From Shigella phage ESh25: a stretch of DNA of 64,000 bases. A program made the translations under genes and the position numbers. The stretch is taken from the sequence record ON528735. The stretch is one strand, 5' to 3'. This document shows positions 11,940 to 28,374 of this stretch, piece by piece (positions within the stretch are counted from its first letter, which is position 1; the number at the start of each line of letters is the position of its first letter). The notes beneath the pieces are model-generated. The model did no database searches. It was not told the origin of the DNA and saw only the letters and a program-made list of their open reading frames with translations.

Positions 11940-11967
11940 TTTCTGTTCCTCCGTAGTTGATAGTTGT

Positions 11968-11997
11968 ATAGTACCACAGAGGAACGGTCTTGTAAAC
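11968..11997 (-). promoter_or_regulatory. T4-type early promoter with conserved leader (ACAACTATCAAC)
   Basis: GTTTAC at 11997-11992, TACTAT at 11973-11968; 20-mer shared with promoters at 13407 and 28177. Confidence 0.6.
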
Positions 11998-11999
11998 AA

Positions 12000-12305
12000 C
12001 TAAAAGAAACTTCTTTCACAATTTTTTCCACTGAACCAAGCGCTCACTGCTTTCTTAGTCTCAGGAGCAGTGTTATCCATAAACCATTCAAAGGCAGCCT
12101 TTTTATGATTCTGGAGGGCTTCTCGGGCTTTAATCTGCTCACGGTCTATTAACACTAACATATGAGCCTTTCTTGTCACCATGGGCTTCTTATGATTTTT
12201 TGAATACTCCCAATCATTTGTCCATCGCATCGTTGTTGCGAACTGAAATACTGCTTCTTTAATTTTAGTTTCATAAATTTCACGAGCCTTTGAGTATAAC
12301 ATCAT
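12000..12305 (-). CDS. hypothetical protein (about 100 aa; nrdC.9 position)
   Basis: Three closely spaced ATGs with GGAGG nearby; exact start uncertain. Confidence 0.55.
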   Translation of the reverse strand: MMLYSKAREIYETKIKEAVFQFATTMRWTNDWEYSKNHKKPMVTRKAHMLVLIDREQIKAREALQNHKKAAFEWFMDNTAPETKKAVSAWFSGKNCERSFF

Positions 12306-12403
12306 TACCTCCATTTACCAGTTTAATTCTAGTCATCTTTTTGATGGCAGTCCATATAATCTATTTCTGAACTGCCTTTTTGTCATAGAAGACCTCTTAT
12401 GAA

Positions 12404-13372
12404 TTATTTCAGAAGAGTAACCTCAGCGATTTCTTCCCAACCGTTTTTGTCGGTCATAATAAAGTCAGCAAGATAAAGAGCAGTACGCAGTGAAACATTG
12501 CGTAAACGATTAACATTGACTTTCATCCATGATAATGCTTTATAAGTTTCTTCATCAGAAAGACCGCGCTTTTGCATCATGTCAGTTGAAAGAATAACAT
12601 CTTCAACCCTGACCATAATTTCTTCATTAGCGTGAACACCCAAATCCAAATAAACTGAGCGGGACACTAATGCTTGTAAATGTGGAGCAAGTTTAGTACC
12701 ACGGTCTAATTCGCGGTCAATGTCAACGTTTGTGATAAAAACAATCGTTCCTTTAAATTCAAACTCACGCTCAATGCCTTTTTCTTCTAAATAAGAAGAT
12801 GCAGTGCTCCAGCAGACTTTACGGGTCTCTCCAGTGTCCAGAGCAGCTTTTAGAAGATTAAGAATGTCCATATCAGAGAAAACATCCACATCATCAATCA
12901 AAAGGACAGAATTCGCTTCACGATTATTCCAAAGCTGCTCATAAAGACCAATACCAGAGATTTTACCGTTAATGCTTTTATATTCAATGTATCCATTATC
13001 ATTTGCTTTATTTAAAGCTTTATCTAAAGAATACGTTTTACCAATACCTGCTGCACCAGAGATAATTAATGAACGAATGTTTCCGTTAATAATACCATTC
13101 GTCATCATTCCCATAACATTAAATCTTTTATTAATGCGGGTTTTCATATCTTCATATGATTCTTTAACTTCTTCAACTTTTACACCATCATATGAAATGT
13201 CTGATTTGTAAACCCAAACACCGCGACGTTTACCGTCAATTTCAACAAAAACTTTACCATCTCCTTGTGCATCTACCGGAGCATTATCAGGGAACCACTC
13301 ACCTAAGAGTTCAAAAGTTCCAGAGATTTCTTTACCGAAGTAGATACCCTTATTAATAGTTACAGTTTTCAT
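12404..13372 (-). CDS. P-loop ATPase (Walker A GAAGIGKT, Walker B VLLIDDVD); nrdC.10 position
   Basis: Walker A and B motifs seen in translation; ATG at 13372 with GGAG 7 nt upstream (track start is TTG). Confidence 0.7.
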   Translation of the reverse strand: MKTVTINKGIYFGKEISGTFELLGEWFPDNAPVDAQGDGKVFVEIDGKRRGVWVYKSDISYDGVKVEEVKESYEDMKTRINKRFNVMGMMTNGIINGNIRSLIISGAAGIGKTYSLDKALNKANDNGYIEYKSINGKISGIGLYEQLWNNREANSVLLIDDVDVFSDMDILNLLKAALDTGETRKVCWSTASSYLEEKGIEREFEFKGTIVFITNVDIDRELDRGTKLAPHLQALVSRSVYLDLGVHANEEIMVRVEDVILSTDMMQKRGLSDEETYKALSWMKVNVNRLRNVSLRTALYLADFIMTDKNGWEEIAEVTLLK

Positions 13373-13406
13373 TTTATTCTCCAAATCCGTATCAGTTGAT
13401 AGTTGT

Positions 13407-13436
13407 ATAGTACTATAAAGCTTTATGCTTGTAAAC
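13407..13436 (-). promoter_or_regulatory. T4-type early promoter with conserved leader
   Basis: GTTTAC at 13436-13431, TACTAT at 13412-13407, A/T UP-like tract upstream. Confidence 0.6.
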
Positions 13437-13460
13437 CGTTTTGTGAAAAATTTTTGAAAT

Positions 13461-13484
13461 AAAAAAGGGAGCCCGAAGGCTCCC
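13461..13484 (-). terminator. rho-independent terminator (hairpin GGGAGCC-TTCG-GGCTCCC plus T run)
   Basis: Perfect 7-bp GC stem with tetraloop followed by TTTTTT on minus strand, directly after the stop at 13487. Confidence 0.6.
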
Positions 13485-13486
13485 TA

Positions 13487-14500
13487 TCATTTATAATAAC
13501 TTCGGTGGTTTTCAAGATAGACCTTCTCAAGGAAGTCATCCCAGAAACTCATGTCTACTTTTTGCTGCATACCGTTCTTAGAAGCTTCAGTAGATGCTGC
13601 TTCTACTTGATCGACCACATCTTCCAAAAACTCTTGAACTGTTTTAAATGGATGTTTACCCAACTTCACGTCGAGAATAAATGGAGCATCTTTGAGTGGA
13701 TAAACCAAGTCACCAGTTTTGTAAATTTCCAATAGTTGGAGTCCACCACGGCAAGCATGACTCAGAGCTTTCCAGTCAATACCTTCATTGGCTTCGGCCT
13801 TACGAGCACGTTCACCATATTCAGCATCTAATTTGTTCAGTGACTGCTTAAGCTCAATAAGAGAAAGCGTTGTCTGATATTTACGACCCAACACAGTGTA
13901 GAACGTTTGTGGGCCTGTTTTCTCATGATTATGGAACACCCATTCACAGAATTCGTTTTCTGGAAGACGATGCTTAATATCTTCAACTTTATTTCGACGC
14001 TGCTTAATGGAACCGTCTTCTTGGTAATCAACCCATTGCTCAGGGATTTGATTAACTACTTTCAATACATCACGTAATGCAGCCAAACGAGAACCCTTGA
14101 CACCGTATTTAGAAGCTTGCTTGCGGACATATCCTAAATAGGATTTCATGTTAGTCGTATAAAAACGAGAACGGTTGTCTTGGATAAATTTCCATACATC
14201 AGGCAAATCAGATTTAACCACTAGTTCAGGCGGAGTGTGAAGCATATCCAATGCTACAGTTTCACCATCTGCTGCTAATTTAAAGAAATACTTAAGACTG
14301 TATAGTTCATGGTCAATATCATCTTTAGTGTTTTTAGATGATGTGTTGTTAGTGTTTTTACTCATGTGCTCTTTGACATTTCCGATAAGAATATCGCGAG
14401 CAGGAGGAACAAAGATTTCTTTAAAATCTACATCAGATTCTGGGGTAGAAGTTCCATAAAGATGACTACCAAAATAGCTTTTCATTACTGTTTTCATCAT
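13487..14500 (-). CDS. Pol-beta-superfamily nucleotidyltransferase-fold protein (GS...G...SDVD motif); nrdC.11 position
   Basis: N-terminal YFGSHLYGTSTPESDVDF matches the GSx(n)G...[DE]h[DE]h nucleotidyltransferase signature. Confidence 0.65.
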   Translation of the reverse strand: MMKTVMKSYFGSHLYGTSTPESDVDFKEIFVPPARDILIGNVKEHMSKNTNNTSSKNTKDDIDHELYSLKYFFKLAADGETVALDMLHTPPELVVKSDLPDVWKFIQDNRSRFYTTNMKSYLGYVRKQASKYGVKGSRLAALRDVLKVVNQIPEQWVDYQEDGSIKQRRNKVEDIKHRLPENEFCEWVFHNHEKTGPQTFYTVLGRKYQTTLSLIELKQSLNKLDAEYGERARKAEANEGIDWKALSHACRGGLQLLEIYKTGDLVYPLKDAPFILDVKLGKHPFKTVQEFLEDVVDQVEAASTEASKNGMQQKVDMSFWDDFLEKVYLENHRSYYK

Positions 14501-14970
14501 TCAGCCTTATATTCAATAACAGGACATACTTTAGCTTTACGAGCTTTTAAAAATTCAACGATAACCGATTTCTTGGGTTGAATAGGAGGTAAACCTTTAT
14601 ACGCCCTATCAATATTTTCTACGTGTAAAGCATAATCCTTTTTCCATTTATAATCTTTATATTTTTCACGCAAATGTGCAGGAATAACAAATGAACCGAT
14701 AATAAGTAAAACAACCAAAAGCGCAAGTATAAATGCTGATGGAAGAAGAGTCCATAAACTACCGAAAATAAGCCAACGTTGTAGGCTTTCTGCACAAATA
14801 ATTGTTAGACCTGCGAGTATAGTACATCCGAAAAAAGAAACGAAAAATGTAGGGATAACAATAGACCAAAAGTATGCACACAGTGTCTTAGGTCGTTTCC
14901 ATTCGTCGTTAAACAGTTTGAATAATTTATAGTGCCAAGAGTTTTCATTAATAATCATAATTATAATCAT
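14497..14970 (-). CDS. membrane protein (157 aa, several transmembrane segments)
   Basis: Multiple hydrophobic helices in translation. Confidence 0.6.
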   Translation of the reverse strand: MIIIMIINENSWHYKLFKLFNDEWKRPKTLCAYFWSIVIPTFFVSFFGCTILAGLTIICAESLQRWLIFGSLWTLLPSAFILALLVVLLIIGSFVIPAHLREKYKDYKWKKDYALHVENIDRAYKGLPPIQPKKSVIVEFLKARKAKVCPVIEYKAE

Positions 14971-15488
14971 CCTTTCATTGAAGGTGTAACAGTTGTTAAA
15001 TACTTAATCATAGCCTCAGCTTCTGATTTTGATAATGAAATTTCTCCATTGTTTTGACGAATAGAAATAAAATCCGGATGACGGTCACCACCAGCTTTTA
15101 AAACACACATATAAGTATCAGTTTCATCTTCAATATTTGAAATGATTGAAGCAGTTCCACATGAATGCGGTTTTTGATAAATCAATACAGCTTTTCTTCC
15201 GCCATTTGACTGTTCATAAACTTTTAATACATCAAACAAATCACTTCTTTTATCAATAGCTAAAATGTTATTTTCATCTTCAACGTTAAATCCTTCGGAT
15301 ACTTCATAAAGTGTTACCCATAAATCGCCAATATCAATAACAGCGTTCACTTTTCCATGACTTTCAAGAGCATGACAAATTTTCTTGATTTCGTCATAAC
15401 TCATTTTAATAATATCATCTCCTTGAATAAGAAAGATGTCATTTTTAAATTCAACACGAATTAAACCACTTCCACTTGAAATAAACAT
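14967..15488 (-). CDS. hypothetical protein (173 aa), paralog of the adjacent 184-aa ORF
   Basis: Shares C-terminal motif S[KD]EA.A..[KN]YL..V.P[ST]M with neighbour. Confidence 0.6.
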   Translation of the reverse strand: MFISSGSGLIRVEFKNDIFLIQGDDIIKMSYDEIKKICHALESHGKVNAVIDIGDLWVTLYEVSEGFNVEDENNILAIDKRSDLFDVLKVYEQSNGGRKAVLIYQKPHSCGTASIISNIEDETDTYMCVLKAGGDRHPDFISIRQNNGEISLSKSEAEAMIKYLTTVTPSMKG

Positions 15489-15494
15489 ATTTCC

Positions 15495-16049
15495 TCACTT
15501 TGAAATCATAGTTGGAATGACAGAATCAAGATAATTCTTTAGCGCAATAGCTTCGTCTTTGGTAAATGTGACAATATGTGCTCGAGAATCATCATTTTGG
15601 CGAACAAGTACGACATCGCCATCTTCATAAGAAGTCTTGACATCCAAAGTCGTAGTATAGTTTGCAGCTACTGGATTAATAATGCTAGCACCGCGATCTT
15701 TAGCCCATTGAAGTTTAACCTTTTCGGGTGTTTCGACTGTTTCAGATTCCAAGAATTCTTTCACCTTGGCAACGAATGTTGCCCAATTGTTGATAGAAAG
15801 ACACATAAATTCAGTTTCAATATTACCGCCGTAAAGGCCACGATAAAAACGAACTTGGAGGTCGCCTGTAATATTAGTTACACCGGTAACTCCTGAGGGA
15901 GCATAAGATAAAATCGCAGCCAGTTCCATAGGAAGAATAGTAATACTATCGTCTTCCTGCGTCAGAACGTATACATTATCACGTTTTTCGATAACCAGGT
16001 CACCGAACAAATCAGTTGTTTCAATTACAGCTTTCATATTATTTACCAA
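15495..16049 (-). CDS. hypothetical protein (184 aa), paralog of the adjacent 173-aa ORF
   Basis: Conserved C-terminal motif shared with 14967-15488. Confidence 0.6.
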   Translation of the reverse strand: MVNNMKAVIETTDLFGDLVIEKRDNVYVLTQEDDSITILPMELAAILSYAPSGVTGVTNITGDLQVRFYRGLYGGNIETEFMCLSINNWATFVAKVKEFLESETVETPEKVKLQWAKDRGASIINPVAANYTTTLDVKTSYEDGDVVLVRQNDDSRAHIVTFTKDEAIALKNYLDSVIPTMISK

Positions 16050-16224
16050 TTAAAGTTTCAATATAAGAATCAAGATTTACTTTAGCTTCTTCCATAAGAA
16101 TTTTGTATTTAATCTTGTTAGCATGTCCGGAGAAAGCTGATTCATCAATAATTGTTGATGTATGAACAGCTCTACTATACGTCTCAATTAATTCTCTTAA
16201 TTTAAAAGCCTGCTCACTTGTCAT
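16039..16224 (-). CDS. hypothetical protein (61 aa)
   Basis: Short ORF; ATG overlaps the stop of an upstream 34-codon hydrophobic mini-ORF. Confidence 0.4.
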   Translation of the reverse strand: MTSEQAFKLRELIETYSRAVHTSTIIDESAFSGHANKIKYKILMEEAKVNLDSYIETLIGK

Positions 16225-16356
16225 TACATACTCCTTTGAACCATATCAATAATGTTATTCACCAGATTATAAGTAAACATTGGGTAATTATATTGAATCA
16301 TCACATACACAACAAACAAAACTTTCATTCTCTTCTCCTTGGCAGTTGACAAGATT

Positions 16357-16386
16357 ACTATACCATAACCTTGCCAACTTGTAAAC
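16357..16386 (-). promoter_or_regulatory. T4-type early promoter (-35 GTTTAC, -10 TATAGT)
   Basis: GTTTAC at 16386-16381, TATAGT at 16362-16357, 18-nt spacer. Confidence 0.5.
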
Positions 16387-16551
16387 CATTAAATGGCGTT
16401 TTCAATAAAATTCTGAAGCTTTGTGTGAGCATCAACCATGATTTTCATTTCTTCTTTGGCGAAAGCTGTACCTCTTTCCCGAGAAGAACATTCATAGTCA
16501 GAAACTGCATTAGCATATTCTTCAATTAGTTTCATTAAAAACATCTGCTTT

Positions 16552-16746
16552 TCAGTTTTCATTATTCCACCTAATCATTTCAAGATATTGAACTAACTTA
16601 GCTTTAGATTTATCCAAATCCTTTTTAGCTGTTGCTATACCGTCGTATGAATATCCTTCACAATGCTCAACTGCTAATTGGTATGAATCTATTTCAATAT
16701 CACGTGCTAATTTAATGATTTTTTCAAACTGTTCACGTGTTAGCAT
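16552..16746 (-). CDS. hypothetical protein (64 aa)
   Basis: Short ORF in tightly packed early operon. Confidence 0.45.
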   Translation of the reverse strand: MLTREQFEKIIKLARDIEIDSYQLAVEHCEGYSYDGIATAKKDLDKSKAKLVQYLEMIRWNNEN

Positions 16747-16748
16747 AC

Positions 16749-16952
16749 TTAAGCTCTCGTATTATGATCAATAATTTCATCAAGAAACATATCTAACGCT
16801 TCTATAGCATTATCCACTTTAGTTTCAAAGTCTTTAATGCCTTTATTCGAAATACCCGATGAATACCAAGCAAAGTCAATCAGCTCTTCATCTGCTTTAC
16901 GAATTGAAGCCACTAATTCCTTGATTTTATCTGCTTGCTCTATACTAATCAT
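16749..16952 (-). CDS. hypothetical protein (about 67 aa)
   Basis: ATG at 16952 shares a nucleotide with the upstream stop (TAATG coupling). Confidence 0.45.
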   Translation of the reverse strand: MISIEQADKIKELVASIRKADEELIDFAWYSSGISNKGIKDFETKVDNAIEALDMFLDEIIDHNTRA

Positions 16953-17140
16953 TATTCCACCACATATGACAGAGAGAATATTGCACACGCCATGTGAGTT
17001 GCAACTTCATCACACATATTATAACGTTTCTTAAGAAGTTCTACAAGTTCTTCACTAGTAACTTCATCCATGTCGACGAAAAAATCACCATTAATGATGA
17101 CGTAGATATTTCCTTCTTGATTAAGTGCTTCAATTTTCAT
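16952..17140 (-). CDS. hypothetical protein (about 62 aa)
   Basis: ATG at 17140 preceded by AAGAGGAG; the longer ORF start lies upstream of the promoter -10. Confidence 0.5.
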
Positions 17141-17167
17141 GATGTTCTCCTCTTTATCTAATAGTTG

Positions 17168-17197
17168 TATAGTATCACGGCTCAAACGAAAAGTAAA
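17168..17197 (-). promoter_or_regulatory. T4-type early promoter
   Basis: GTTTAC at 17197-17192, TACTAT at 17173-17168. Confidence 0.55.
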
Positions 17198-17208
17198 CCG
17201 GTAAAATG

Positions 17209-17229
17209 AAAAAAGTCTCCCGAAGGAGA
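17209..17229 (-). terminator. rho-independent terminator (GTCTCC-TTCG-GGAGAC plus T run)
   Basis: Hairpin followed by TTTTT on minus strand immediately after the stop at 17236. Confidence 0.55.
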
Positions 17230-17235
17230 CTAATG

Positions 17236-17622
17236 CTATTCGAGGGAAAGAAGATATTTACTTTGGTAAAACATTCCAGTAATATCATCTATCGTGCTTT
17301 GGATGGCTGGAGGCATTTCTTTATAAATGCTGTTAGATTGGTCTAGTATGCGATCAATCATTTTAATTGTGTCGGTAGGAAGTTTACTGGCATCTGGAAT
17401 TGAAGGCGTGTATTTTCTACCAGAATACCCCAAATATTGCTCACCAAATTTATCAATCAAATCTGGCAACTCGGAGAAAATAAAATCGTATGCTTTGTGT
17501 CTAGCATAACTTTTAGTTTCAAAATGTGCAGAATGAAAATAAGCTTGTGCAGCCATTAATAAACCTAAGTATTCATCTGCCTTTGAAGGTTTTCCACTTT
17601 GTGAAAAGTCGCTGAATTTCAT
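17236..17622 (-). CDS. hypothetical protein (128 aa; rI.-1 position)
   Basis: Intact ORF directly downstream of rI. Confidence 0.6.
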
Positions 17623-17912
17623 TCAGTCTCCAATTTAATGTTCATAATTCTAGCGTATGATTGTGCCATCTCCGCGCCTCGTTCTATACATTCAAAATCA
17701 GAAGAGCACGGGTCATTTTTATAGGTCGTTCTCATAAAACTATAGAACTGTTCAGATGATTCTACGCTTTTATTTTCAAAAAGCATATAAACATGTCTAA
17801 TACCAGATTCCATAAATTTATCAAAATGAGGATCGACATTCGCTTCAATTGGTGGAGATAAAGCAAATGACAATCCTAGCATGGCAAAAAGTGCCGTTGC
17901 TTTTAAGGCCAT
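17619..17912 (-). CDS. rI: lysis inhibition regulator rI (periplasmic, signal-anchor)
   Basis: 97 aa with N-terminal signal-anchor; recalled near-identity to T4 RI. Confidence 0.9.
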   Translation of the reverse strand: MALKATALFAMLGLSFALSPPIEANVDPHFDKFMESGIRHVYMLFENKSVESSEQFYSFMRTTYKNDPCSSDFECIERGAEMAQSYARIMNIKLETE

Positions 17913-17924
17913 AAAGGCCTCCTA

Positions 17925-18137
17925 TCATTTTTGTCCTGTATTTACTTTATGCCGATGCACGGCCTTAACTTTATCAAGGTATTTTTCAAAATTTCGCAAT
18001 CTAGTATAGTCTGCCGGAGATTGGTTGAGTGATACTTCTCGACGCAAAGCTGAAATGATATTTCCAACTTCCCTACGAATTTCATCTAATTGAAGCACAG
18101 TAAGATTGCGAAGTTGCTTTTCAGTTAATTGTAGCAT
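17925..18137 (-). CDS. hypothetical protein (70 aa)
   Basis: Intact ORF between tk and rI. Confidence 0.5.
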
Positions 18138-18179
18138 ATATACCCCTTTAGTTAGATAAACCTATTTATAACTTTTGCA

Positions 18180-18761
18180 CTAACCGAGCTTTTTAGTTAA
18201 TTCATTCCAATGTTTTCTGCACAAAGAAACATAAATTTCATCACCAATACAGATTTGATTACCTTCTTTAACCGGTGTTCCATCTTCCATTAATCGAGCT
18301 GTCATAATAGCCTTTTTACCACAATGACAAACTGCCTTTAGTTCAATAAGTTTATCTGCAATCGCCAAAAGTTCTTTAGAACCTTCAAATAATTTTCCAG
18401 CGAAATCAGTCCTTAGCCCATAAGCCATAACAGGAACATTATATGTATCAACAATTCGACTTAATTGATGCACCTGTTCAGTTTTTAAAAACTGAGCTTC
18501 ATCTACAAATACACAATGAATATCTTTTTGTGCTTCAGCCCATTTATAGAACTCGAAAATATCCATATCATCTGTAATAATATTCGCTTCCTGTTTAATT
18601 CCAATGCGAGAAACGACTTCACAGACAGAATCACGAGTATCAATAGCAGGCTTAAGAACTAATACACCCATTCCGCGTTCTTTATAATTATGTGCAGCAG
18701 TCAAAAGAGAAGCAGATTTTCCAGCATTCATTGCTGCGTAAGTAAAAATTAAACTCGCCAT
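18180..18761 (-). CDS. tk: thymidine kinase
   Basis: 193 aa, P-loop AMNAGKS and zinc-ribbon cysteines; recalled identity to T4 Tk. Confidence 0.95.
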   Translation of the reverse strand: MASLIFTYAAMNAGKSASLLTAAHNYKERGMGVLVLKPAIDTRDSVCEVVSRIGIKQEANIITDDMDIFEFYKWAEAQKDIHCVFVDEAQFLKTEQVHQLSRIVDTYNVPVMAYGLRTDFAGKLFEGSKELLAIADKLIELKAVCHCGKKAIMTARLMEDGTPVKEGNQICIGDEIYVSLCRKHWNELTKKLG

Positions 18762-18770
18762 ATCACCTTC

Positions 18771-18956
18771 TTAAAGCGTATTCACATAAGCTATTAATTC
18801 GTTTTCTTTCTTATCAAACCGATCAGCAAATTCTTCTTGCTGATCGGGAGATAGCGGGCCGTATTCATCATAAAAGGTGTTTGCTTCTGTATGCTCATCT
18901 AGAAGTTCATGGATAAGCTCAAACAATTTATCTTTTTGTTCTTTACTCAGACTCAT
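18771..18956 (-). CDS. hypothetical protein (61 aa; tk.1 position)
   Basis: Short acidic ORF upstream of tk. Confidence 0.5.
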   Translation of the reverse strand: MSLSKEQKDKLFELIHELLDEHTEANTFYDEYGPLSPDQQEEFADRFDKKENELIAYVNTL

Positions 18957-19126
18957 ATATTAATTTCCAGGAGTTTTAAAATAATTCGCTTTTGCTTAAA
19001 TATTTCCATAGTTAAATGACCAGTATCTTTTTGACCGATTCCAATGGCAAAACCTTTATTGACAGCGAGTTCAATTAAATTATCAAGCTCACGTAACACT
19101 TCATATTGTAACTCAAAACTATTCAT
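18953..19126 (-). CDS. hypothetical small protein (57 aa), below the ORF-track length cut-off
   Basis: ATG at 19126 to TGA at 18953; stop overlaps the next ATG (ATATGA coupling). Confidence 0.35.
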   Translation of the reverse strand: MNSFELQYEVLRELDNLIELAVNKGFAIGIGQKDTGHLTMEIFKQKRIILKLLEINI

Positions 19127-19350
19127 TTCGGTTTACCTTCTTTAACGAAATCAGGATAAGGATAAAATCCTGAATAAAATCCTTCACCTTTATGATTGAT
19201 GCATCCTTTATTAGAACAATAGCACCAATAATCGAAATCACAAGCCATTTCATCATTACATAAAGCAAAAACAACTGGCCATTCACACTTTTCGCAGTGG
19301 GCATTTTTAAGAATACTAGTTTGGCTCATAACCATGTAACCTTTAAACAA
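19123..19350 (-). CDS. hypothetical cysteine-rich protein (75 aa)
   Basis: Ten cysteines including CEKC and CYC pairs, zinc-binding-like. Confidence 0.5.
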   Translation of the reverse strand: MFKGYMVMSQTSILKNAHCEKCEWPVVFALCNDEMACDFDYWCYCSNKGCINHKGEGFYSGFYPYPDFVKEGKPK

Positions 19351-19538
19351 TATTCTTCTACATGTTGTTTACGACCTTTCCTATCAATAAAGGTATATTC
19401 AACGAATGTTCCAATATAGTCTTTATCTACATCATGTGGACTATTAATTGGGCATTTAGTACGGCAAATGCGTTCCCATTGACGAATAATTTCCACTTTG
19501 TTTTTAGGATCAAACGGATGCGGGTAATGTACTTTCAT
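19326..19538 (-). CDS. hypothetical protein (70 aa)
   Basis: Intact short ORF. Confidence 0.45.
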   Translation of the reverse strand: MKVHYPHPFDPKNKVEIIRQWERICRTKCPINSPHDVDKDYIGTFVEYTFIDRKGRKQHVEEYCLKVTWL

Positions 19539-19989
19539 AATCCACCACTATTAAATCAATATCAGGAGTAAACATGTCGATTAATTTAGAAACCTTATCC
19601 CAATCGCCGCCAGCAATACCGCAACCTATGCGTGGAATGTAAATTACTGGTTTAAACAAAAGGGTTTCTGCCTGTAGATTTAATTCTATCATGCAGTTTA
19701 CTAAAGCACCATAATCAAGATTAGGACCCGGTTCGTATTGTGTATACAGGTTATAGCATATACCAAATCCCGTAGGACTATGTTTAAAAACAATAGACAT
19801 ATCGCCTAATTTATCACGAGAACCGTACTCGGTAGTGGTTTTATCTATTTCTAAAATTTTGGGATAGGCTCTTGCTAATTGACCCGCTACGCCAGAGCCC
19901 ATTGTGTGGAAGCAATTGCACCCGTGCGCAATAATATTACCTTGAAGAAATAGGGCGACAATATCGCCCTTGATATATTTTACAATCAT
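19510..19989 (-). CDS. macro-domain-like protein (possible ADP-ribose-processing enzyme)
   Basis: 159 aa with N-terminal GDI...GNIIAHGCNC and glycine-rich GSGVAG motif resembling macro/Appr-1-p folds. Confidence 0.5.
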   Translation of the reverse strand: MIVKYIKGDIVALFLQGNIIAHGCNCFHTMGSGVAGQLARAYPKILEIDKTTTEYGSRDKLGDMSIVFKHSPTGFGICYNLYTQYEPGPNLDYGALVNCMIELNLQAETLLFKPVIYIPRIGCGIAGGDWDKVSKLIDMFTPDIDLIVVDYESTLPASV

Positions 19990-20327: not shown

Positions 20328-20865
20328 TTACTATTTCCAAAAGTTTATTATTTTTAAGGTAATTAGCCTTTTCTAGGACTTCAGAAGCATATTTAGAACC
20401 TGCTTTAACATTCCATCCCGAATTATAAGAGGATATTGCTTTTCTTATATCGCCCTTATGTATATTTAACCAATAAGAAAGTTCAATGTACGCCCAGGAA
20501 GCTGAATTGGACCGTTTATTCAACATTCTTTTTATTTCAGCATCGGTCATATTATAACCAAGTTCCTTAACTCTTGCTCGCATAGTAGGCAAATAATTTT
20601 GGAACATTCCATAAGCGTGATGCTTTGGTTTAGATTTTAAATTAACTCCGCCAGAGCTTTCTTGCCATAAAATAGCAGCCATTATATGACCTAATCCGCT
20701 CTTGTGGATATTTTTGTGTGTTTTATATTTTCCATCCTTAGAAAATTGTTCCCCGAATTGATACGCGTAACGCATGTTATCGAGTTGGACATTACTGAAA
20801 GTATGCTCGGAGCTATGTGCCATCATTGAAATGGCCAATAGACCAGCGAGTAGTGCTTTTCTCAT
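20320..20865 (-). CDS. periplasmic lytic transglycosylase-like protein (vs.1 position)
   Basis: Signal peptide plus SLT-like QESSGG motif. Confidence 0.6.
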   Translation of the reverse strand: MRKALLAGLLAISMMAHSSEHTFSNVQLDNMRYAYQFGEQFSKDGKYKTHKNIHKSGLGHIMAAILWQESSGGVNLKSKPKHHAYGMFQNYLPTMRARVKELGYNMTDAEIKRMLNKRSNSASWAYIELSYWLNIHKGDIRKAISSYNSGWNVKAGSKYASEVLEKANYLKNNKLLEIVND

Positions 20866-20872
20866 GCTTACC

Positions 20873-21334
20873 TCATTGAGTTTTAATTACTGCTTTAGAA
20901 GCCTTTCCTGGTAAACGACGACTGTTGATAATTGCCATCCTACATTGAAGTGACGGGTTTTTGAACTTCTCATTAGGTTTACAAACCGTAAATCCAAGCC
21001 AAAGATTTCCATCTGTAATTTCCAAACGCCCAGGACGATATTCAACCCCATCAATAAAATCCTCGTCAATGTCAGGACGTGGAGGCATACTCAGGAATTC
21101 ATTAACTTCTAAAACATGGTCTTTTATTTTATGGAATAATTCAAAAACGTATGTCTCATCAATCTCCCGTTGAATTGCGCGATCAAGAAGATGTTGAGAA
21201 TATTTTAGATGAAACGATGAGACCCCTGCTGCTTTTGATGCCTCACGAATCTCATTGTTAATTTGACGAAACTCCGACTCAAAGTGACGACGGAGCTTAT
21301 TTCGACGGATAAAAACTTCTGTGTTGATAGTCAT
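20873..21334 (-). CDS. regB: RegB site-specific endoribonuclease
   Basis: 153 aa; recalled near-identity to T4 RegB; early promoter upstream. Confidence 0.9.
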   Translation of the reverse strand: MTINTEVFIRRNKLRRHFESEFRQINNEIREASKAAGVSSFHLKYSQHLLDRAIQREIDETYVFELFHKIKDHVLEVNEFLSMPPRPDIDEDFIDGVEYRPGRLEITDGNLWLGFTVCKPNEKFKNPSLQCRMAIINSRRLPGKASKAVIKTQ

Positions 21335-21361
21335 GTTATTCTCCTCTTAACTGATAGAAAA

Positions 21362-21391
21362 ATTATACCACAGTCAAGAGGAAAAGTAAAC
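21362..21391 (-). promoter_or_regulatory. T4-type early promoter (-35 GTTTAC, -10 TATAAT)
   Basis: GTTTAC at 21391-21386, TATAAT at 21367-21362. Confidence 0.55.
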
Positions 21392-21393
21392 AG

Positions 21394-21672
21394 TTATTCT
21401 TTAAATCTAATCAATTTATTCATAGACTTTGAAACTTCTGCACGAACCTCATGTAAGTTTTTAAGCTGTTCAAGACGCTGCTCATAGTAAGCAATTTCAT
21501 CTTCTTCGAGACAGTCCTGTGAATCTTCTTTAAGATAACGTGCATAGTCCTGAAAAGCTTTACGGACTACTTCCTGGAAGTCATCAAGACTTTGAATTTT
21601 CTTAGGAGCGGCAGATACACGACGAGGTGCAGTATAATACTCATAACCAAACCCTGCACTTAATTGAGCCAT
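21394..21672 (-). CDS. hypothetical protein (about 92 aa; vs.3 position)
   Basis: ATG at 21672 overlaps the upstream stop. Confidence 0.5.
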
Positions 21673-21935
21673 TAGTATTTTTCCTCTGGTTGGAACACTG
21701 CACGACAAGCCCACATACTGGCTTCTTTGAGTTTCGTTTTAGCAATAGTTAACTGATCGAGGCTTTCAGCATAATTCTTCGCGAGTTCATCATCTTCACA
21801 ATTATCTAGTGCTTCCCAGAATTCATCGTATAAAGCGTCAAAGATAAGTCCTAAACGAACTTCAGCGTCTTTAATAGCATTTACTTTACCGATTTTTTTC
21901 GTCGGTATGTGGCTTATAACCTTTAATATCTTCAA
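21672..21935 (-). CDS. acb2: Vs.4-like protein; candidate anti-CBASS cyclic-oligonucleotide sponge (Acb2-like)
   Basis: 87 aa at the vs.4 position of T4 gene order; T4 Vs.4 is the described Acb2. Confidence 0.5.
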
Positions 21936-22153
21936 TCATATTTGACTTCCTCACCAGTACATAAATCATATTCAACTAAACGAATAGGTTCATGAATGCC
22001 ATATCCTTGAACAGAAATTTCTGTCGTAGGATAAATTCCATTAATATCACCCATATTCCAGGCTTCATTAAATTGCTGTTCGCCTGAATTACTAAACCAC
22101 TCGGCGAAAGCATTTAGCACATCTTTAGAACCTTCAATAATTATCTTTGCCAT
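21932..22153 (-). CDS. hypothetical protein (73 aa; vs.5 position)
   Basis: Intact short ORF. Confidence 0.5.
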   Translation of the reverse strand: MAKIIIEGSKDVLNAFAEWFSNSGEQQFNEAWNMGDINGIYPTTEISVQGYGIHEPIRLVEYDLCTGEEVKYD

Positions 22154-22515
22154 TACAAACTCTCAGTAAAGGTACGAGCAATAACGTCGCGCTGCTGTTC
22201 CGGAGTCAGAGAGTTAAAGCGAACTGCATAACCGGATACACGGATGGTCAGCTGCGGATATTTTTCCGGATGCTTAACTGCATCTTCCAGAGTTTCGCGA
22301 CGCAGAACGTTAACGTTCAGGTGTTGACCACCTTCAATTTTAACTGTAGGCTGTTGCTCAATTTCAATTTCACGGGCATGCAAACCATAGAAAATTTCTG
22401 GGTCTACAAAAGAGTCCTCTTTAAAGGTTTTAGAGACAATAATTCGTGCTTGAATACCATCTTCAAAATAAATAGTACCTTTATGTGTGCCTTCAAGAAT
22501 TTGATATGCTTTCAT
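22153..22515 (-). CDS. autonomous glycyl radical cofactor (GrcA/YfiD-like)
   Basis: C-terminal 60 aa carry the RVSGYAVRF glycyl-radical motif; recalled near-identity to E. coli GrcA C-terminus. Confidence 0.85.
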
Positions 22516-22522
22516 ATAAACC

Positions 22523-22903
22523 TCAATTAGAAAATAAATTTATCCAAGATTGTTCTTTAATTAAAAATGGCTCAGAATCATATGCCATTAAACTTTGGGT
22601 GATTAGTCCTTTAAAAGGCCCATCAATAAATTCCATGGTAAAATATGGAATTTTATTCATTAGCCGTGCATTAGGAGCAGTACACAAAACTCTGCATCCT
22701 TTGAATACGCCTTTTTGTAATTTGTATTGCTTGGGATAAAATTCGCTCAAAATGTTATTATTTGCTAAAATTTCAAAATGATTCACCAATTTATTTTTAA
22801 TAGTTTTTGGCGAAAAATAAAGATATTCGAAAAGCTGAGTGTCTGTCATCATTGCATTCCGATTACGAAAAACTGTGGACGAGTAATACCACCAATGCAA
22901 CAT
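22523..22903 (-). CDS. hypothetical protein (126 aa; vs.7 position)
   Basis: Intact ORF. Confidence 0.5.
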
Positions 22904-23436
22904 TTAATATTACAGCAGCAGTGTACAGTGTCAATATGGACACTATAAATCTTATCCATATCAGGAGATTTGACAGGCTCATCAATTATATACAAAATTC
23001 GCGAAAGCGATAAACCTCTGAACTTGCTTCCTTTATTACCAATAAAACTGCGCACAGAATCAGTAAATAAACGAAAACGTATATCATCATTAGAATAACG
23101 CGAAAATTCCTTTTTAATATTATCTGCGGAAATTTTAGCGTAAGCTGAAGTATTAGAAAGAACAATAACTGTTCCACCGTCATACAACCAATTAGCGGCA
23201 AAATTAGTTACTGCAGTTGATTTACCAGATTGGCGTCCACCATCTAGTCGAAGTGTACAATATTGTTTAAGCAAGTCTTCAAATGGTGGGATATAATCGT
23301 TTTTACAAATTTCTTCTACTCTAGCATCAGAATGGTGTGTAAAAGCATTCATCAGGGATAGATAAGGACCAGTTAAAAATGTTCTCATTTTATTCTCTCT
23401 AAATTTGGGCCATTCCATGGCGCATGAATTGTCCAT
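22849..23436 (-). CDS. small P-loop NTPase-like protein (GRQSGKST); start uncertain (alternative ATG at 23388)
   Basis: Walker A GGRQSGKST and hhhhDEP Walker-B-like motif. Confidence 0.5.
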   Translation of the reverse strand: MDNSCAMEWPKFRENKMRTFLTGPYLSLMNAFTHHSDARVEEICKNDYIPPFEDLLKQYCTLRLDGGRQSGKSTAVTNFAANWLYDGGTVIVLSNTSAYAKISADNIKKEFSRYSNDDIRFRLFTDSVRSFIGNKGSKFRGLSLSRILYIIDEPVKSPDMDKIYSVHIDTVHCCCNIKCCIGGITRPQFFVIGMQ

Positions 23437-23533
23437 TTCTGTATTTACCCATTACCGCACTTGGGCTCGACCTTATTACAGGTTGGCGGGAATCCCTCAC
23501 AGAATCATGAGGTCCAGGTTATTCCCATGTTAT

Positions 23534-23950
23534 TTAAATGTAAATATTTTTGCCGTAATACTTATACCAGTGTGGCTTCATTAAAATTTTTTCATCGAGT
23601 CGTTGTTGACTCAACTTAATAGCTGATTTGCATGGATTATAATCATTTTTCCATTCTACTGGAATATCGCTGATGTCAGGAACTTCAGTATCTTTTATAC
23701 TGAACCCGCGTTTTAAGCATTCCGTTATAATGTCCGATTGACGCTTTCGCAAAAATTCTAACTTATCGTAAAAGAAAGTAACATGACCAGAACCTAAAAT
23801 AAATTTAGAAGATATTTTAAAATCTTTAACGCGCTTACCGTTTGCCACATGCTTACGAACTATACCAAAAACACGCGGCAATTCACGGTATTCTGCGATT
23901 AAATGTTGATCAGCAAGTTCAGATACTAAAGTCAAATTAATACGAGTCAT
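23534..23950 (-). CDS. denV: endonuclease V (pyrimidine dimer DNA glycosylase)
   Basis: 138 aa; recalled near-identity to T4 endo V. Confidence 0.95.
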
Positions 23951-23974
23951 TTTATCCCTCCAAGTAACTGTGAA

Positions 23975-24005
23975 TATACTATCACAATTCTAGGAGAAAG
24001 TAAAC
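23975..24005 (-). promoter_or_regulatory. T4-type early promoter (-35 GTTTAC, -10 TAGTAT)
   Basis: GTTTAC at 24005-24000, TAGTAT at 23980-23975, in the 60-bp e-denV gap. Confidence 0.5.
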
Positions 24006-24009
24006 AACT

Positions 24010-24540
<531 letters not shown>

Positions 24541-24996
24541 TTAAAAGAGGCTGTTCATTATTCGGTAAAGTGAAGGACCCATCACATATTGCCACTGAGT
24601 ACGAGGAATAAGAGCAAAAGCATCCATCTCTGGAATCATAACACCATCTTTATTTTCAAAATAAGACTCGCAATGGCAATTTCTAAACATCTCATGCTCT
24701 ACTGGAATCGTATAATAAAACAGCTGTAAGTCTTTATTACTAGAATATTTAAATACACCTAGGTCTTCTAGAAGGTCTGGATTATAATTGCTAAAACCGG
24801 TCTCTTCTAAGCATTCTCTTCGTGCTGCATCTAGTGCGCTCAAATCAGAATTTTCTACACGGCCTTTTGGAATATCCCAGCGATGTGCCATCATTCCAGG
24901 CTTACGAGAACCAGTAACCCGTCCCATGAATAAATCTTTATCTTCTGTCATAAAGATAATACCAGCTGATAATGTTTTCATTTTAATTTCCTGCAT
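24541..24996 (-). CDS. nudE: Nudix hydrolase
   Basis: 151 aa with Nudix box (RRECLEETG). Confidence 0.9.
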   Translation of the reverse strand: MQEIKMKTLSAGIIFMTEDKDLFMGRVTGSRKPGMMAHRWDIPKGRVENSDLSALDAARRECLEETGFSNYNPDLLEDLGVFKYSSNKDLQLFYYTIPVEHEMFRNCHCESYFENKDGVMIPEMDAFALIPRTQWQYVMGPSLYRIMNSLF

Positions 24997-25376
24997 TCGG
25001 TGATAAAATTATTTAAATTTTGAGTATATTTCTTTTCATCAAAAATCTTTTGCTGCCTACGTAAACGCCATGGCATTTCAATGAACGTGTACCATATCCC
25101 AGATAATATTGCTGCTGTAAAAATATTAACAAGTATGGTTAAAATAATCCAATCTCCCGTTCTGTCTACTGGACTTTCTCCAAAGAAGCAAAATACAAAT
25201 GATGTCACAGGAAAACTAATAATATACCACAGAATCATAATCTTATCTGTGAACCAATCAGTGTTCGTTAATTTAGCGCGACCATTATGAATACACACGA
25301 ATTTATCATCTGTTGCAGTAGATGGCTTAACTGGTTGATATCCCATTCTAAACTCCCTAATCAGCAAATTTTTCAT
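24978..25376 (-). CDS. membrane protein (132 aa; e.2 position)
   Basis: Hydrophobic transmembrane segments. Confidence 0.55.
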   Translation of the reverse strand: MKNLLIREFRMGYQPVKPSTATDDKFVCIHNGRAKLTNTDWFTDKIMILWYIISFPVTSFVFCFFGESPVDRTGDWIILTILVNIFTAAILSGIWYTFIEMPWRLRRQQKIFDEKKYTQNLNNFITECRKLK

Positions 25377-25462
25377 ATCTTCGGAACAGCCATTCTAGTC
25401 AACTCTATCAACTGAAATGCCATCATCCCCATCATCTAAATCATACCAGCGAGTTTTTAAAA

Positions 25463-25837
25463 TCATTTGATTTTCCTACAATCATTCACGAATTCTTTCA
25501 TTGATTCATTTTCAATATAAGACATGTAGTTATTATATTCTTTTAATTGTATTTTGTAATCCTTTTTTCTTTGCCAATTTATTTTAAAATTATCATAATG
25601 AAAATATAAAATAATACCAAAGAATGAAAATAATGAAATCGCTATAGTATAATGAAGTTCACTCCAAACTTCTATTATATCTACTATACCGCTGACATTA
25701 CTGCGGATGTTTAAAATAATACAGTCAATCATTAATCCAATAAGACTACCAGCAAGAGCTGCAGCCAACGCCACAGCAAAAATTAAAAATGACTCAGAAA
25801 AAGAATATTTGACTTTATTTAGTTTTGGCTTTTGCAT
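25463..25837 (-). CDS. membrane protein (124 aa; e.3 position)
   Basis: Two or three predicted transmembrane helices. Confidence 0.55.
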   Translation of the reverse strand: MQKPKLNKVKYSFSESFLIFAVALAAALAGSLIGLMIDCIILNIRSNVSGIVDIIEVWSELHYTIAISLFSFFGIILYFHYDNFKINWQRKKDYKIQLKEYNNYMSYIENESMKEFVNDCRKIK

Positions 25838-26232
25838 CGTGATTCCTTAACAAATTTCATAATTTCGTTAAATTCATGCATATCTAATTTAAGCTGGTGT
25901 TCCTTTTTAATCTTTTTACACTGAGCTTTCCATTCACGTACACGTTTACGATAATGCCTTCCTTGATACCAATATCCTACCCAATTTACAGGTACCAATA
26001 AAAATGGAACTACTAATGGAAGAATTAATACTAACAAAAATATTACGCCAGATTCAATATCAGTCATAAAGTCTATAACCATTCCAACAACCAATAGAAT
26101 TACAAATGATATAGCTGTCACAGGACCTATTAATACATCAGTAGGAATTAGCTGACGCTTTAGTTCATACTTCACAGGTTTACTTGGAAGGTATAGTGAT
26201 GGCTTTGACATATTCTCTACATTCCTTAACAA
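25819..26232 (-). CDS. membrane protein (137 aa; e.4 position)
   Basis: Hydrophobic helices; basic C-terminus. Confidence 0.55.
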   Translation of the reverse strand: MLRNVENMSKPSLYLPSKPVKYELKRQLIPTDVLIGPVTAISFVILLVVGMVIDFMTDIESGVIFLLVLILPLVVPFLLVPVNWVGYWYQGRHYRKRVREWKAQCKKIKKEHQLKLDMHEFNEIMKFVKESRCKSQN

Positions 26233-26785
26233 ATTTTTCTAATAATAAATCGCTTTCAAAATTAGGATTTTCCACGAATTTATCAAAAAGATCATCAACG
26301 ATAGTTAAGATATTCTTTTTATTAAGAATACGCTTATTTTCATATTTTGTTTCAGAGTCAACTATAAGAGTAAAGAAATATTTCTTTCCCTGAAATTTTA
26401 CCGTAGTATCAATATAGAACAAATTTGACTTTTGTAAATTACGTTTAAACCATGCGTCACTTAAACTGTAAACGCCAAGATAATCATAATCGTCGTTTAA
26501 ATAACATACTGTCCATTCAGGAGAAATGAAATCAGTAAATTCAACATCAAAATCACATGTTAATGAATGAATTGATTCAATACTGTTAATAAGTATTCCA
26601 GGACGTATTAAAGACTTTTTACCTTTATAAAATCCAGAAAGACTTTCATCAGTTTCATATGAAGAACCCCAATAATAATTACGTCCTTCTGCCATACGTT
26701 TAAGAGCATTTAATAATTGGTCTGGAACATCAACTTGTCTTTGGAATTCTTCAAACATTGAATTGAAATCACTTTGCATTTTCAT
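26180..26785 (-). CDS. hypothetical protein (201 aa; e.5 position)
   Basis: Intact ORF. Confidence 0.6.
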   Translation of the reverse strand: MKMQSDFNSMFEEFQRQVDVPDQLLNALKRMAEGRNYYWGSSYETDESLSGFYKGKKSLIRPGILINSIESIHSLTCDFDVEFTDFISPEWTVCYLNDDYDYLGVYSLSDAWFKRNLQKSNLFYIDTTVKFQGKKYFFTLIVDSETKYENKRILNKKNILTIVDDLFDKFVENPNFESDLLLEKFVKECREYVKAITIPSK

Positions 26786-26827
26786 TCCTATTTACTCCAA
26801 GTAATAGGGGCCGAAGCCCCTTTATCA

Positions 26828-27421
26828 TTATTTCAGAGAATTAATGTATTCCTGAACATCAGCAGAGGTAGTTTCAACCCCAGAAATATTGCCATTAAAG
26901 GTTTCAACTCGGGCAAGAGTATCTTCAATATCAACCTTAGTCAGCGCTGCAATTTCAACTACATCATCAGCAGTACTAATTCCGAGGGCATTAGCGGCGC
27001 GAGTTTCACGGATATATTCCAATTTAACTGCAAGTTCTTGGCGAGCATCATCTAACTCAACTACTTTCTTGGCGATTTCAATTCGCATTTCAGCATAACC
27101 ATCAGCTTTAGTAGTCAACTGCTCAGCTGTTCGACGATATAGTAAACCGAGTTTAGCATGCATTGTTACATCTTGACCTTCCGAAAGAAGCTTGCGAATT
27201 TCACGCTCTTTTGATTCGGCCTGCTTATTCTTTTCGACAATAAGTTCACGAATACGCTTTTCTTCATTAATAGATTTAACAGAAGCAGTTTTTAGATCTT
27301 TAATCTTATCAAGTAGTTTTGCTGCTGCAGCAGTATACTGTTCTTCAACAGATAGATTTTTAGCCATAGCAGAACCAAGTTTAGTGCGAATAAACTCAAC
27401 AATTTTCTTCAGTGTGTTCAT
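26828..27421 (-). CDS. coiled-coil protein, PspA/IM30-like (197 aa; e.6 position)
   Basis: Long heptad-rich helical sequence; GC tetraloop hairpin downstream at 26807-26820. Confidence 0.55.
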
Positions 27422-27477
27422 AGTATTTCCTTAGGTTGGTATAATTAGATAATATCACGTTTTAATAGATTGTAAAC

Positions 27478-27813
27478 TTATTCTTCGTCTAGCTCATCGA
27501 TAAAGACGTTGATGGCCTCGATAACGGCATCATTGATAGCCAATAAAATAAAATCATCGTCAGTACCTTTAGAAGATTCTAAAGCATTGATATATGCTTG
27601 GTTGGCGAGTTCCCAAGCCTTTTTAAAATAAGGAGCTTCATCATCGGGGCCAACGAAACGTACGCCTTCAAAGATACGTTTGGCATAATCTAACACCCAT
27701 TGTACAGGCATGTTTTGAGAACGTTCGTTAAACTCTTTAAAGTCCTTAGATTCAAAAAGCTCTTCAGGATAATTATTTCTATTACAAAAAGCTTTACTAA
27801 AGTTACGTTTCAT
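27478..27813 (-). CDS. hypothetical protein (111 aa; e.7 position)
   Basis: Intact ORF with own early promoter. Confidence 0.55.
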   Translation of the reverse strand: MKRNFSKAFCNRNNYPEELFESKDFKEFNERSQNMPVQWVLDYAKRIFEGVRFVGPDDEAPYFKKAWELANQAYINALESSKGTDDDFILLAINDAVIEAINVFIDELDEE

Positions 27814-27839
27814 AATGTTTTCCTCATTTGTATAGGCTC

Positions 27840-27869
27840 ATAATATCTCAATCATGAGCCTATGTAAAC
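27840..27869 (-). promoter_or_regulatory. T4-type early promoter (-35 GTTTAC, -10 TATTAT)
   Basis: GTTTAC at 27869-27864, TATTAT at 27845-27840; -10 embedded in an 8-bp inverted repeat. Confidence 0.5.
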
Positions 27870-28145
27870 TTATTTCATATTATTGAAATATTCTTCTGCG
27901 ATTTCGTCGTTATCATGGTAAACTTTAGAAGACAGTTTAACATAACTTTCAGCAGTGAACATGTTAATCACAACCTTTACAGTATACCACTGACCGTCTT
28001 CATTGCCCATTACCGCATAAGTTTCAAACATCGGATGATCAGGACCGATAACTTTAATATCATTCACTGTACGACCGAAATCTTCTGAAACACATTTCAT
28101 AAAGAAGTTGAACAGTTCGCCGTAATTATCCATTTCGTTCTCCAA
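27870..28145 (-). CDS. hypothetical protein (91 aa; e.8 position)
   Basis: Intact ORF downstream of early promoter. Confidence 0.55.
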   Translation of the reverse strand: MENEMDNYGELFNFFMKCVSEDFGRTVNDIKVIGPDHPMFETYAVMGNEDGQWYTVKVVINMFTAESYVKLSSKVYHDNDEIAEEYFNNMK

Positions 28146-28176
28146 GTTGTTTTCTGTATCAGTAGTTGATAGTTGT

Positions 28177-28206
28177 ATAGTACCATGGAAGAACAGGGAT
28201 GTAAAC
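28177..28206 (-). promoter_or_regulatory. T4-type early promoter with conserved leader
   Basis: GTTTAC at 28206-28201, TACTAT at 28182-28177; same 20-mer as at 11968 and 13407. Confidence 0.6.
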
Positions 28207-28336
28207 AGTTTTGTGAAAAAATTTTTAAAAAGTTTTAGGGAATTCTAGGGTCAGGAGGGGCAATTAAAAGATAGGATAATATATTATAAAGGGTAGAAAC
28301 TAAATGATGCCTAGAGAGGCCCGGAAAGGCCTAGAT

Positions 28337-28367: not shown

Positions 28368-28374
28368 AAGAATG

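Follow-up and report, generated by a model that had tools for sequence, protein, structure and literature searches.

The early promoters of phage T4 have been described as promoters with UP, -35, TGn and -10 elements plus additional regions of consensus, and by convention their GTTTAC motif is numbered -36 to -31 and their -10 hexamer -12 to -7 (Hinton 2010 PMC2988021; Nolan 2006 PMC1524935). Early promoters (Pe) of T4-type phages are also found in early-promoter stem-loop (PeSL) cassettes, whose shuffling was published for RB49/phi1 (Arbiol 2010 PMC2839356) and extended to KVP40/nt-1 and to the T4/PST pair, which belongs to the genus considered here and has a published promoter consensus of TTTACW-N17-TAYWAT (Comeau 2014 PMC4122927). 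In the PeSL model, exchange between adjacent cassettes would give rise to deletions and mini-circles. Here, we describe a repeated 20-mer, AGTTGATAGTTGTATAGTAC, and a shorter version of it in a 64,000-nucleotide stretch of the genome of Shigella phage ESh25 (sequence record ON528735; the window, in what follows). The 20-mers and the short copy are very probably the core of T4-type early promoters, whose cassettes probably also serve as short homologies for gene gain and loss. T4 early promoters and PeSL-type cassettes are already known in this genus, and the published idea of shuffling holds in part at this locus.

The window comes from a Tequatrovirus, a T4-like phage, with up to 98.7% identity to Escherichia phage KMB40 over 11000-18000, and the region under study is a minus-strand early block that runs nrdD...nrdC.x...mobD.x...rI...tk...vs...regB...denV...e...e.8...tRNAs. 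The exact 20-mer was present three times in the window, on the plus strand at 11955-11974, 13394-13413 and 28164-28183; no further copy with up to three mismatches was found there, and 100 dinucleotide-preserving shuffles yielded no match at all. The minus-strand reading of all three copies is GTACTATACAACTATCAACT, preceded by GTTTAC. The short fourth version, TACTATACAACTAT, occupies 17174-17161 on the minus strand, with its GTTTAC at 17198-17193. An initial annotation of this DNA had listed identical 20-mers at 11954, 13394 and 28163 and a shorter version at 17161; all four proved real, two of the coordinates being one off. It had also given the distance from GTTTAC as 18 nt, which is correct for TACTAT but not for the first base of the 20-mer, which lies 17 nt away in all three copies. 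In the mRNA sense, all four sites are GTTTAC-N18-TACTAT, all four fit the T4/PST consensus, and the pattern GTTTAC-N16-19-TACTATAC gave four matches against an expectation of zero by chance. An unbiased repeat search over 1-36000 placed the four sites together in one family (D4), and the three largest families from that search (D1-D3) were pieces of early promoters as well.

The genes downstream of the sites are homologues of nrdC.8 (ATG at 11939), nrdC.10 (13372), mobD.5 (17140) and e.8 (28133), and the proteins read from these ATGs matched PHROG profiles end to end. In the mechanical list of open reading frames, the same genes start at TTG codons lying 60, 12, 45 and 12 nt upstream of the respective ATGs. 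The over-extended N-termini suspected in the initial annotation were therefore borne out for all four genes, with frames that read through leader and promoter. For annotation, the value of the analysis lies in the true starts of these four genes and in the marking of four early transcription units and their terminators, as follows.

11955-11974, minus strand: first 20-mer copy, positions -13 to +7 of the nrdC.8 early promoter, with the -10 hexamer at 11973-11968 and the predicted +1 at 11961
11937-11997, minus strand: nrdC.8 cassette, with GTTTAC at 11997-11992, spacer, TGg, -10, start region, leader ACGGAGGAACAGAAA and ATG at 11939-11937
13394-13413, minus strand: second 20-mer copy, nrdC.10 early promoter, with the -10 hexamer at 13412-13407 and the predicted +1 at 13400
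13370-13485, minus strand: nrdC.10 cassette, with terminator at 13485-13466, UP element at about 13459-13437, GTTTAC at 13436-13431, -10, leader GATACGGATTTGGAGAATAAA and ATG at 13372-13370
17138-17231, minus strand: mobD.5 cassette with the short version, with terminator at 17231-17214, GTTTAC at 17198-17193, TACTATACAACTAT at 17174-17161, predicted +1 at 17162 and ATG at 17140-17138
28164-28183, minus strand: third 20-mer copy, e.8 early promoter, with the -10 hexamer at 28182-28177 and the predicted +1 at 28170
28131-28232, minus strand: e.8 cassette, with UP element at about 28232-28207, GTTTAC at 28206-28201, TGg, -10, leader ACTGATACAGAAAACAACTTGGAGAACGAA and ATG at 28133-28131

Numbered by the T4 convention, the 20-mer comprises a G at -13, TACTAT at -12 to -7, ACAACT at -6 to -1, an A at +1 and TCAACT at +2 to +7, and from -13 to +7 it agreed at almost every position with the consensus of 29 non-orthologous early promoters from the window and its relatives (aAaAAatTTTcAcAAAattGTTTACAt...attgTGgTAtTATa.acCTATcAAcTa). 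The extended -10 element was TGg at nrdC.8 and e.8, TGa at mobD.5 and TAg at nrdC.10, so that TGn is present in three of the four; the nrdC.10 promoter of this isolate has lost TGn by a single base. An UP element (family consensus aAaAAatTTTcAcAAA) was clear at nrdC.10 and e.8, where it belongs to repeat family D3 and carries the T4 UP-element consensus AAAATTTTTCACAAA. It was partial at nrdC.8 (GGAAAAAATTGTGAAAGAAG) and weak at mobD.5, where the T-run of the terminator sits in the UP position. At all four sites, the predicted start lies 22-37 nt upstream of the Shine-Dalgarno sequence and ATG of a minus-strand gene. About 13 further minus-strand sites in the window have GTTTAC-N17/18-TAnnnT followed by a Shine-Dalgarno sequence and an ATG. 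A generic sigma-70 scan was uninformative in this A/T-rich window (92 sites versus 81 +/- 9 in shuffles); only the T4-specific promoter pattern is non-random here, and the generic sigma-70 pattern is not. The 20-mer also contains a tandem heptamer, CAACTAT-CAACTAC, with three ACTAT/ACTAC units at 7-nt spacing, so that further -10-like hexamers follow the main -10.

In T4, the exact 20-mer stands before the orthologous nrdC.8, nrdC.10 and e.8 genes, and a copy with three mismatches lies upstream of denV, indicating that the repeat is a feature of the genus and not an event in this genome. A recent duplication within this genome was rejected, as these genes have identical copies in T4 and in about 500 relatives. 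Instead, the copies are identical because they are placed at the family consensus: T4 shares all three, and promoters stand at the same genes in other genera. Time-resolved RNA sequencing of T4 places the orthologues nrdC.8, nrdC.10, e.8 and mobD.5 in the early class, and the public record of Yersinia phage fPS-2 has predicted early promoters at the sites orthologous to nrdC.8, mobD.5 and e.8. Together with the architecture and the T4 copies, these data support the early promoter proposed in the initial annotation. The sites share with T4 early promoters the positions of GTTTAC and the -10 hexamer, TGn, the A/T-rich UP element, the extra consensus at the start and co-oriented early genes, and they differ in nothing of substance, this being another Tequatrovirus isolate whose nrdC.10 copy has TAg versus TGg.

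The same elements were seen beyond these orthologues. Among Tequatrovirus contigs in IMG/VR, the exact 20-mer stood in front of at least seven unrelated genes, one of which begins MSKVTYIIKASNDV and which we take to be motA. The nrdC.8 and nrdC.10 genes of Mosigvirus JS09 and Dhakavirus MX01 likewise have promoters at these places, with a start region of (A/G)GACCTATC(A/G)A and with the core CTATCAA retained in three of the four promoters. Their coordinates within the compared segment are given below.

JS09, 1040-1133 and 2543-2598: promoters orthologous to those of nrdC.8 and nrdC.10
MX01, 1146-1211 and 2546-2600: promoters orthologous to those of nrdC.8 and nrdC.10

In both phages, the nrdC.8 and nrdC.10 promoters alike carry (A/G)GACCTATCAA where Tequatrovirus has ACAACTATCAA. 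Paralogous promoters thus vary together from lineage to lineage, a pattern suggestive of gene conversion or of selection specific to each lineage.

Judged by this architecture, the host sigma-70 RNA polymerase would recognize the four sites immediately after infection, and transcripts would start at the predicted positions 11961, 13400, 17162 and 28170 and run through the short leader to the GGAG-type Shine-Dalgarno sequence and the ATG of the nrdC.8, nrdC.10, mobD.5 and e.8 homologues. Each promoter, with its upstream intrinsic terminator where there is one, would then bound a small transcription unit. Promoter activity and the exact start sites are predicted here from sequence.

G+C-rich hairpins followed by a T-run, typical in form of intrinsic terminators, were found on the minus strand at 13485-13466, 17231-17214 and 28367-28344, that is, 30 nt upstream of the -35 element at nrdC.10, 16 nt at mobD.5 and 138 nt at e.8. 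The GC hairpin terminators that the initial annotation had paired with some copies are therefore present at three of the four sites, but not at nrdC.8. No hairpin was found inside the promoters of the 20-mer class (z 0.4, -0.7, 1.0, -0.2), and the stem-loops of this class are separate upstream terminators, not part of the promoter. As for the proposed likeness to promoter-stem-loop modules, the PeSL papers describe such cassettes in this very genus. PeSLs are composites of an A/T-rich region, early promoter, stem-loop, Shine-Dalgarno sequence and ATG that are concentrated in variable regions and next to indels. The sites resemble them in the order of these parts, with a stem-loop at three of the four and indels at nrdC.10 and at the terminator of e.8; they differ in that promoters of the 20-mer class contain no hairpin, nrdC.8 has no stem-loop and that of e.8 is distant.

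A second class of promoters in the window, with -35 elements starting at 27869, 31985, 31654, 24005 and 16386 on the minus strand, did contain a strong hairpin with the -10 element in its loop, one arm lying in the -35/-10 spacer and the other just past the -10 (-13.5 to -21.6 kcal/mol, z -2.1 to -5.7). These five promoters correspond to the commonest PeSL subclasses of phi1 (Arbiol 2010 PMC2839356). Read-through RNA and extruded DNA are the only settings in which this hairpin could form; an attenuator, a processing site and a recombination aid are candidate roles.

The initial annotation had also spoken of a conserved leader cassette. By the T4 numbering, the 20-mer is mostly promoter core, with a predicted leader share of only about 7 nt, but shared leader modules do exist beyond it. 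In the IMG/VR contigs, the sequence past the 20-mer was modular: GATACGGATTTGGAGAATAAAATG is common to nrdC.10 and another gene (MKFKFYY) and recurs at a lipoprotein-like gene, either lacking its first G or preceded by ACT; ACTGATACAGA is common to e.8 and the presumed motA; and ACGGAGGAACA.AAATG, together with the promoter spacer aagac[ct]gttcctctgtg, is common to nrdC.8 and an unrelated gene (MKKIIKAI). A known signal lies in the same part of T4 early mRNAs, in whose Shine-Dalgarno regions the strong sites of the RegB/S1 endoribonuclease have the consensus GGAGRAYARAA (Uzan and Miller 2010 PMC3014915). All four leaders in the window have GGAG in the Shine-Dalgarno sequence. The nrdC.10 leader, GGAGAATAAAA, matched the RegB consensus exactly (0 mismatches) and the e.8 leader, GGAGAACGAAA, with one mismatch, while those of nrdC.8 and mobD.5 matched its 3' A-rich part poorly. 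These elements, exact at nrdC.10, are candidate cleavage sites that resemble known RegB sites in sequence; they lie 20-35 nt downstream of the 20-mer and outside it. Given the leader modules and the RegB-type matches, the conserved leader is real but lies beyond the 20-mer, and it appears to be explained partly by common descent of the cassettes and partly by a known post-transcriptional signal. An Rfam search of 11800-29400 found no RNA element there, only two tRNAs and a sub-threshold chance match.

To compare the cassettes with sites of gene gain and loss, breakpoints were mapped in eight related genomes first and then in the whole phage collection. Repeats of 17-55 nt, made of promoter or terminator sequence, stood on both sides of inserts in the relatives. 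Eleven of 39 breakpoint clusters fell in early-promoter cassettes, which make up 5.8% of the sequence (binomial 9e-6 under a uniform null), and among the eight relatives breakpoints occurred in 5 of the 13 cassettes of the region. One case was the gap between nrdC.11 and nrdC.10, an insertion hotspot with at least five configurations, whose junctions fall within promoter or leader: at GTTTACA, CTATCAA or GGAGAATAAAATGAAAACT, or else inside the UP/-35 segment (a 39-nt repeat in HY01). An insert was present in this gap in about 10 of 31 spread-sampled genomes. The configurations were these.

Window, T4 and KMB40: terminator, promoter, nrdC.10
UGKSEcP2: the same promoter, leader and ATGAAAACT drive two inserted genes, and nrdC.10 has a different early promoter
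AndreasVesalius: divergence directly after GTTTACA into another gene
slur08: both inserts present
HY01: a fifth insert, with the 39-nt UP/-35 repeat on its flanks

The nrdC.10 site thus behaves as the PeSL model predicts, and the gap is a natural cassette-insertion site that may be a place to seek accessory genes in T4-like phages or to engineer insertions into them. Similar exchanges were observed at other loci of the window, as listed below.

31596-31699, minus strand: early promoter with GTTTAC at 31654 and start region TACCCTATCAACT
27421-27914, minus strand: gene at the e.7 position, bracketed by two early promoters with GTTTAC at 27869 and 27477
23950-24050, minus strand: denV early promoter with GTTTAC at 24005, an insertion site of internal-protein genes
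28335-28370, minus strand: first arm of a terminator repeat, an intrinsic terminator 138 nt upstream of the e.8 promoter and a breakpoint in T4, UGKSEcP2 and other relatives
28890-28925, minus strand: second arm of the terminator repeat (family D8), 97% identical to the first

At the 31654 locus, AndreasVesalius, UGKSEcP2 and Ge15 have an inserted gene of about 275 bp with a 24-nt promoter repeat on its flanks, so that a single hybrid promoter in the window stands against two promoters around an extra gene in these three relatives. The gene at the e.7 position is replaced by an unrelated gene in KMB40, HY01 and UGKSEcP2, with junctions just past the start site of the first promoter and in the leader of the next gene. 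At 24005, internal-protein genes are inserted in T4, UGKSEcP2 and slur08, the UGKSEcP2 insert being flanked by a 43-nt promoter repeat. The internal-protein locus of T4 was the first reported example of such shuffling. Upstream of e.8, the 36-nt direct terminator repeat brackets the gene at 28375-28848 (phrog_2280, N-terminus MKSYAQFLNEA). This gene is absent from T4, as is the DNA between the two copies, and only one copy of the terminator is present there; other phages have extra genes inserted at the same terminator. These observations suggest that the repeated cassettes of 20-100 bp may provide, as in the PeSL model, short stretches of homology for the gain, loss or swapping of gene cassettes between related phages, and that the indels were probably produced by recombination within the cassettes rather than merely tolerated there. 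What is restated here is known biology, namely the length and high similarity of T4 early promoters and the coincidence of promoter/terminator cassettes with gene gain and loss in T4-type phages; the comparative data add the modest refinement that only some cassettes are active breakpoints.

Several observations weigh against the combined picture of early promoters that double as exchange sites. The nrdC.8 site was contiguous in 498 genomes and the mobD.5 site in 499, with Shigella phage Sf25 as the one exception, so that, in contrast to what PeSLs would lead one to expect, neither site is tied to indels in about 500 genomes; no genome lacking nrdC.9-nrdC.10 by deletion between the nrdC.10 and nrdC.8 promoters was found among 498 full-length matches. 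The coincidence of repeats with synteny breakpoints that the initial annotation had asked about accordingly held for the nrdC.10 hotspot and the terminator upstream of e.8, and failed at nrdC.8 and mobD.5. Eight of the 13 early promoters of the region had no breakpoint among the eight relatives, and many breakpoints lie away from promoters, among them those at 23533 and 15630-16220, in the mobD region and in the tk.x genes. The uniform null is generous, since viable indels are expected in non-coding DNA, which here is mostly promoter cassette. At nrdC.8, no stem-loop or terminator was found, and the gene upstream ends with its stop codon 3 nt short of GTTTAC. At nrdC.10, a minus-strand A at 13414 gives TAgTACTAT where T4, KMB40, UGKSEcP2 and slur08 have TGgTACTAT. 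Finally, no 5'-end mapping for these particular promoters was found in the literature or in the T4 annotation: the early promoters named in the papers found were others, such as Pe40.4, Pe57.9 and Pe69.9, and the T4 GenBank record has no promoter features.

Much of this would follow if the sites were early promoters and nothing more, a reading that we regard as possible but unlikely. Insertions would then survive only in non-coding gaps, inserted genes would bring their own promoters, and promoter similarity would reflect convergent selection on polymerase binding; the cassettes would not be recombination substrates, and their coincidence with indels would be a by-product. In its favor, three of the four claimed cassettes had no breakpoint among the eight relatives; across the collection two are contiguous in about 500 genomes, while e.8 has breakpoints at its upstream terminator. 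Some insertions, such as that at 23533, have no promoter at the junction. Selection alone would also place the 20-mer at the family consensus, and the RegB match of GGAGAATAAAA offers another selective ground for similarity. Against it, the inserts at the 31654 and 24005 loci lie between direct repeats of promoter pieces, and genomes with a single copy carry hybrids of the two flanking promoters there. Moreover, the spacer that the nrdC.8 promoter shares with that of the MKKIIKAI gene is not read by the polymerase, and in two IMG/VR contigs the MKKI[IV]KAI gene has the same spacer, aagactgttcct..gtgg, with a -10 block of TACTATACAA versus TAGTATTACC. This last pair of promoters has the appearance of a patch-like replacement inside an otherwise identical promoter.

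The remaining alternatives concern the repeat itself. The CTATCAAC block, from about -2 to +6, could be a functional element separate from polymerase recognition, such as the operator of an early-promoter shut-off factor or a signal at the 5' end of early mRNAs. Promoters of unrelated genes have the block in common, it is conserved in three genera, and reviews describe early-promoter shut-off as not understood and the extra consensus regions as of unknown role. However, its conservation is only moderate (roughly 0.6-0.8 bits per position), several strong-looking early promoters of the window lack it (9026, 27477, 187), and no RNA family (Rfam) or structure was found for it. Start-site and discriminator preferences are common in strong sigma-70 promoters. 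We consider it improbable that the block is a control element in its own right, perhaps the one on which T4 early-promoter shut-off acts; in that case, its lineage-specific flavors, ACAACTATCAA in Tequatrovirus and A/GGACCTATCAA at the corresponding Mosigvirus and Dhakavirus genes, would be kept uniform within a genome by gene conversion between paralogous promoters. Hardly credible, in our judgment, is the idea that each repeat is one copy of a small mobile element, like a miniature inverted-repeat transposable element (MITE) or the target of a homing endonuclease, that resembles a promoter by chance. Multiple near-identical copies do stand before unrelated genes in each genome, and relatives carry homing endonuclease genes in this region; but terminal inverted repeats and target-site duplications are absent, the nrdC.8, nrdC.10 and e.8 copies are orthologous and stable across the genus, and the similarity fades into the general promoter consensus without element boundaries. 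This reading was rejected on the absence of element ends and on orientation and spacing, every copy being co-oriented with, and at a fixed distance from, a Shine-Dalgarno sequence and ATG. T4-type early promoters whose cassettes also take part in gene exchange thus remain the preferred explanation.

The break in Sf25, at 1150-1240 of the compared segment and equivalent to window 17140-17290, was the sole one at the mobD.5 promoter among the approximately 500 genomes. A deletion there has removed the terminator, the UP element and the -35 element together with the 3' end of the gene upstream, and its junction, ctgtgGTACTATACAACTATCG, resembles the nrdC.8 version of the promoter.

Small genes beginning MK[TS]Y.EF accounted for much of what was swapped, both in the window (31676-31924, minus strand) and among the inserts of relatives at the equivalents of 23533, 24005 and 31637. 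The gene at 31924 matches phrog_3499, an internal head protein, and the MK[TS]Y.EF start is similar to the sequence that targets T4 internal proteins to the capsid. The tRNA cluster at 29140-30770 was also rich in indels among relatives, with tRNA and homing-endonuclease genes gained and lost, apparently independently of early promoters. Near 36000 in the window, the sign of the GC skew flips, which suggests a switch from the minus-strand early/middle block to plus-strand genes.

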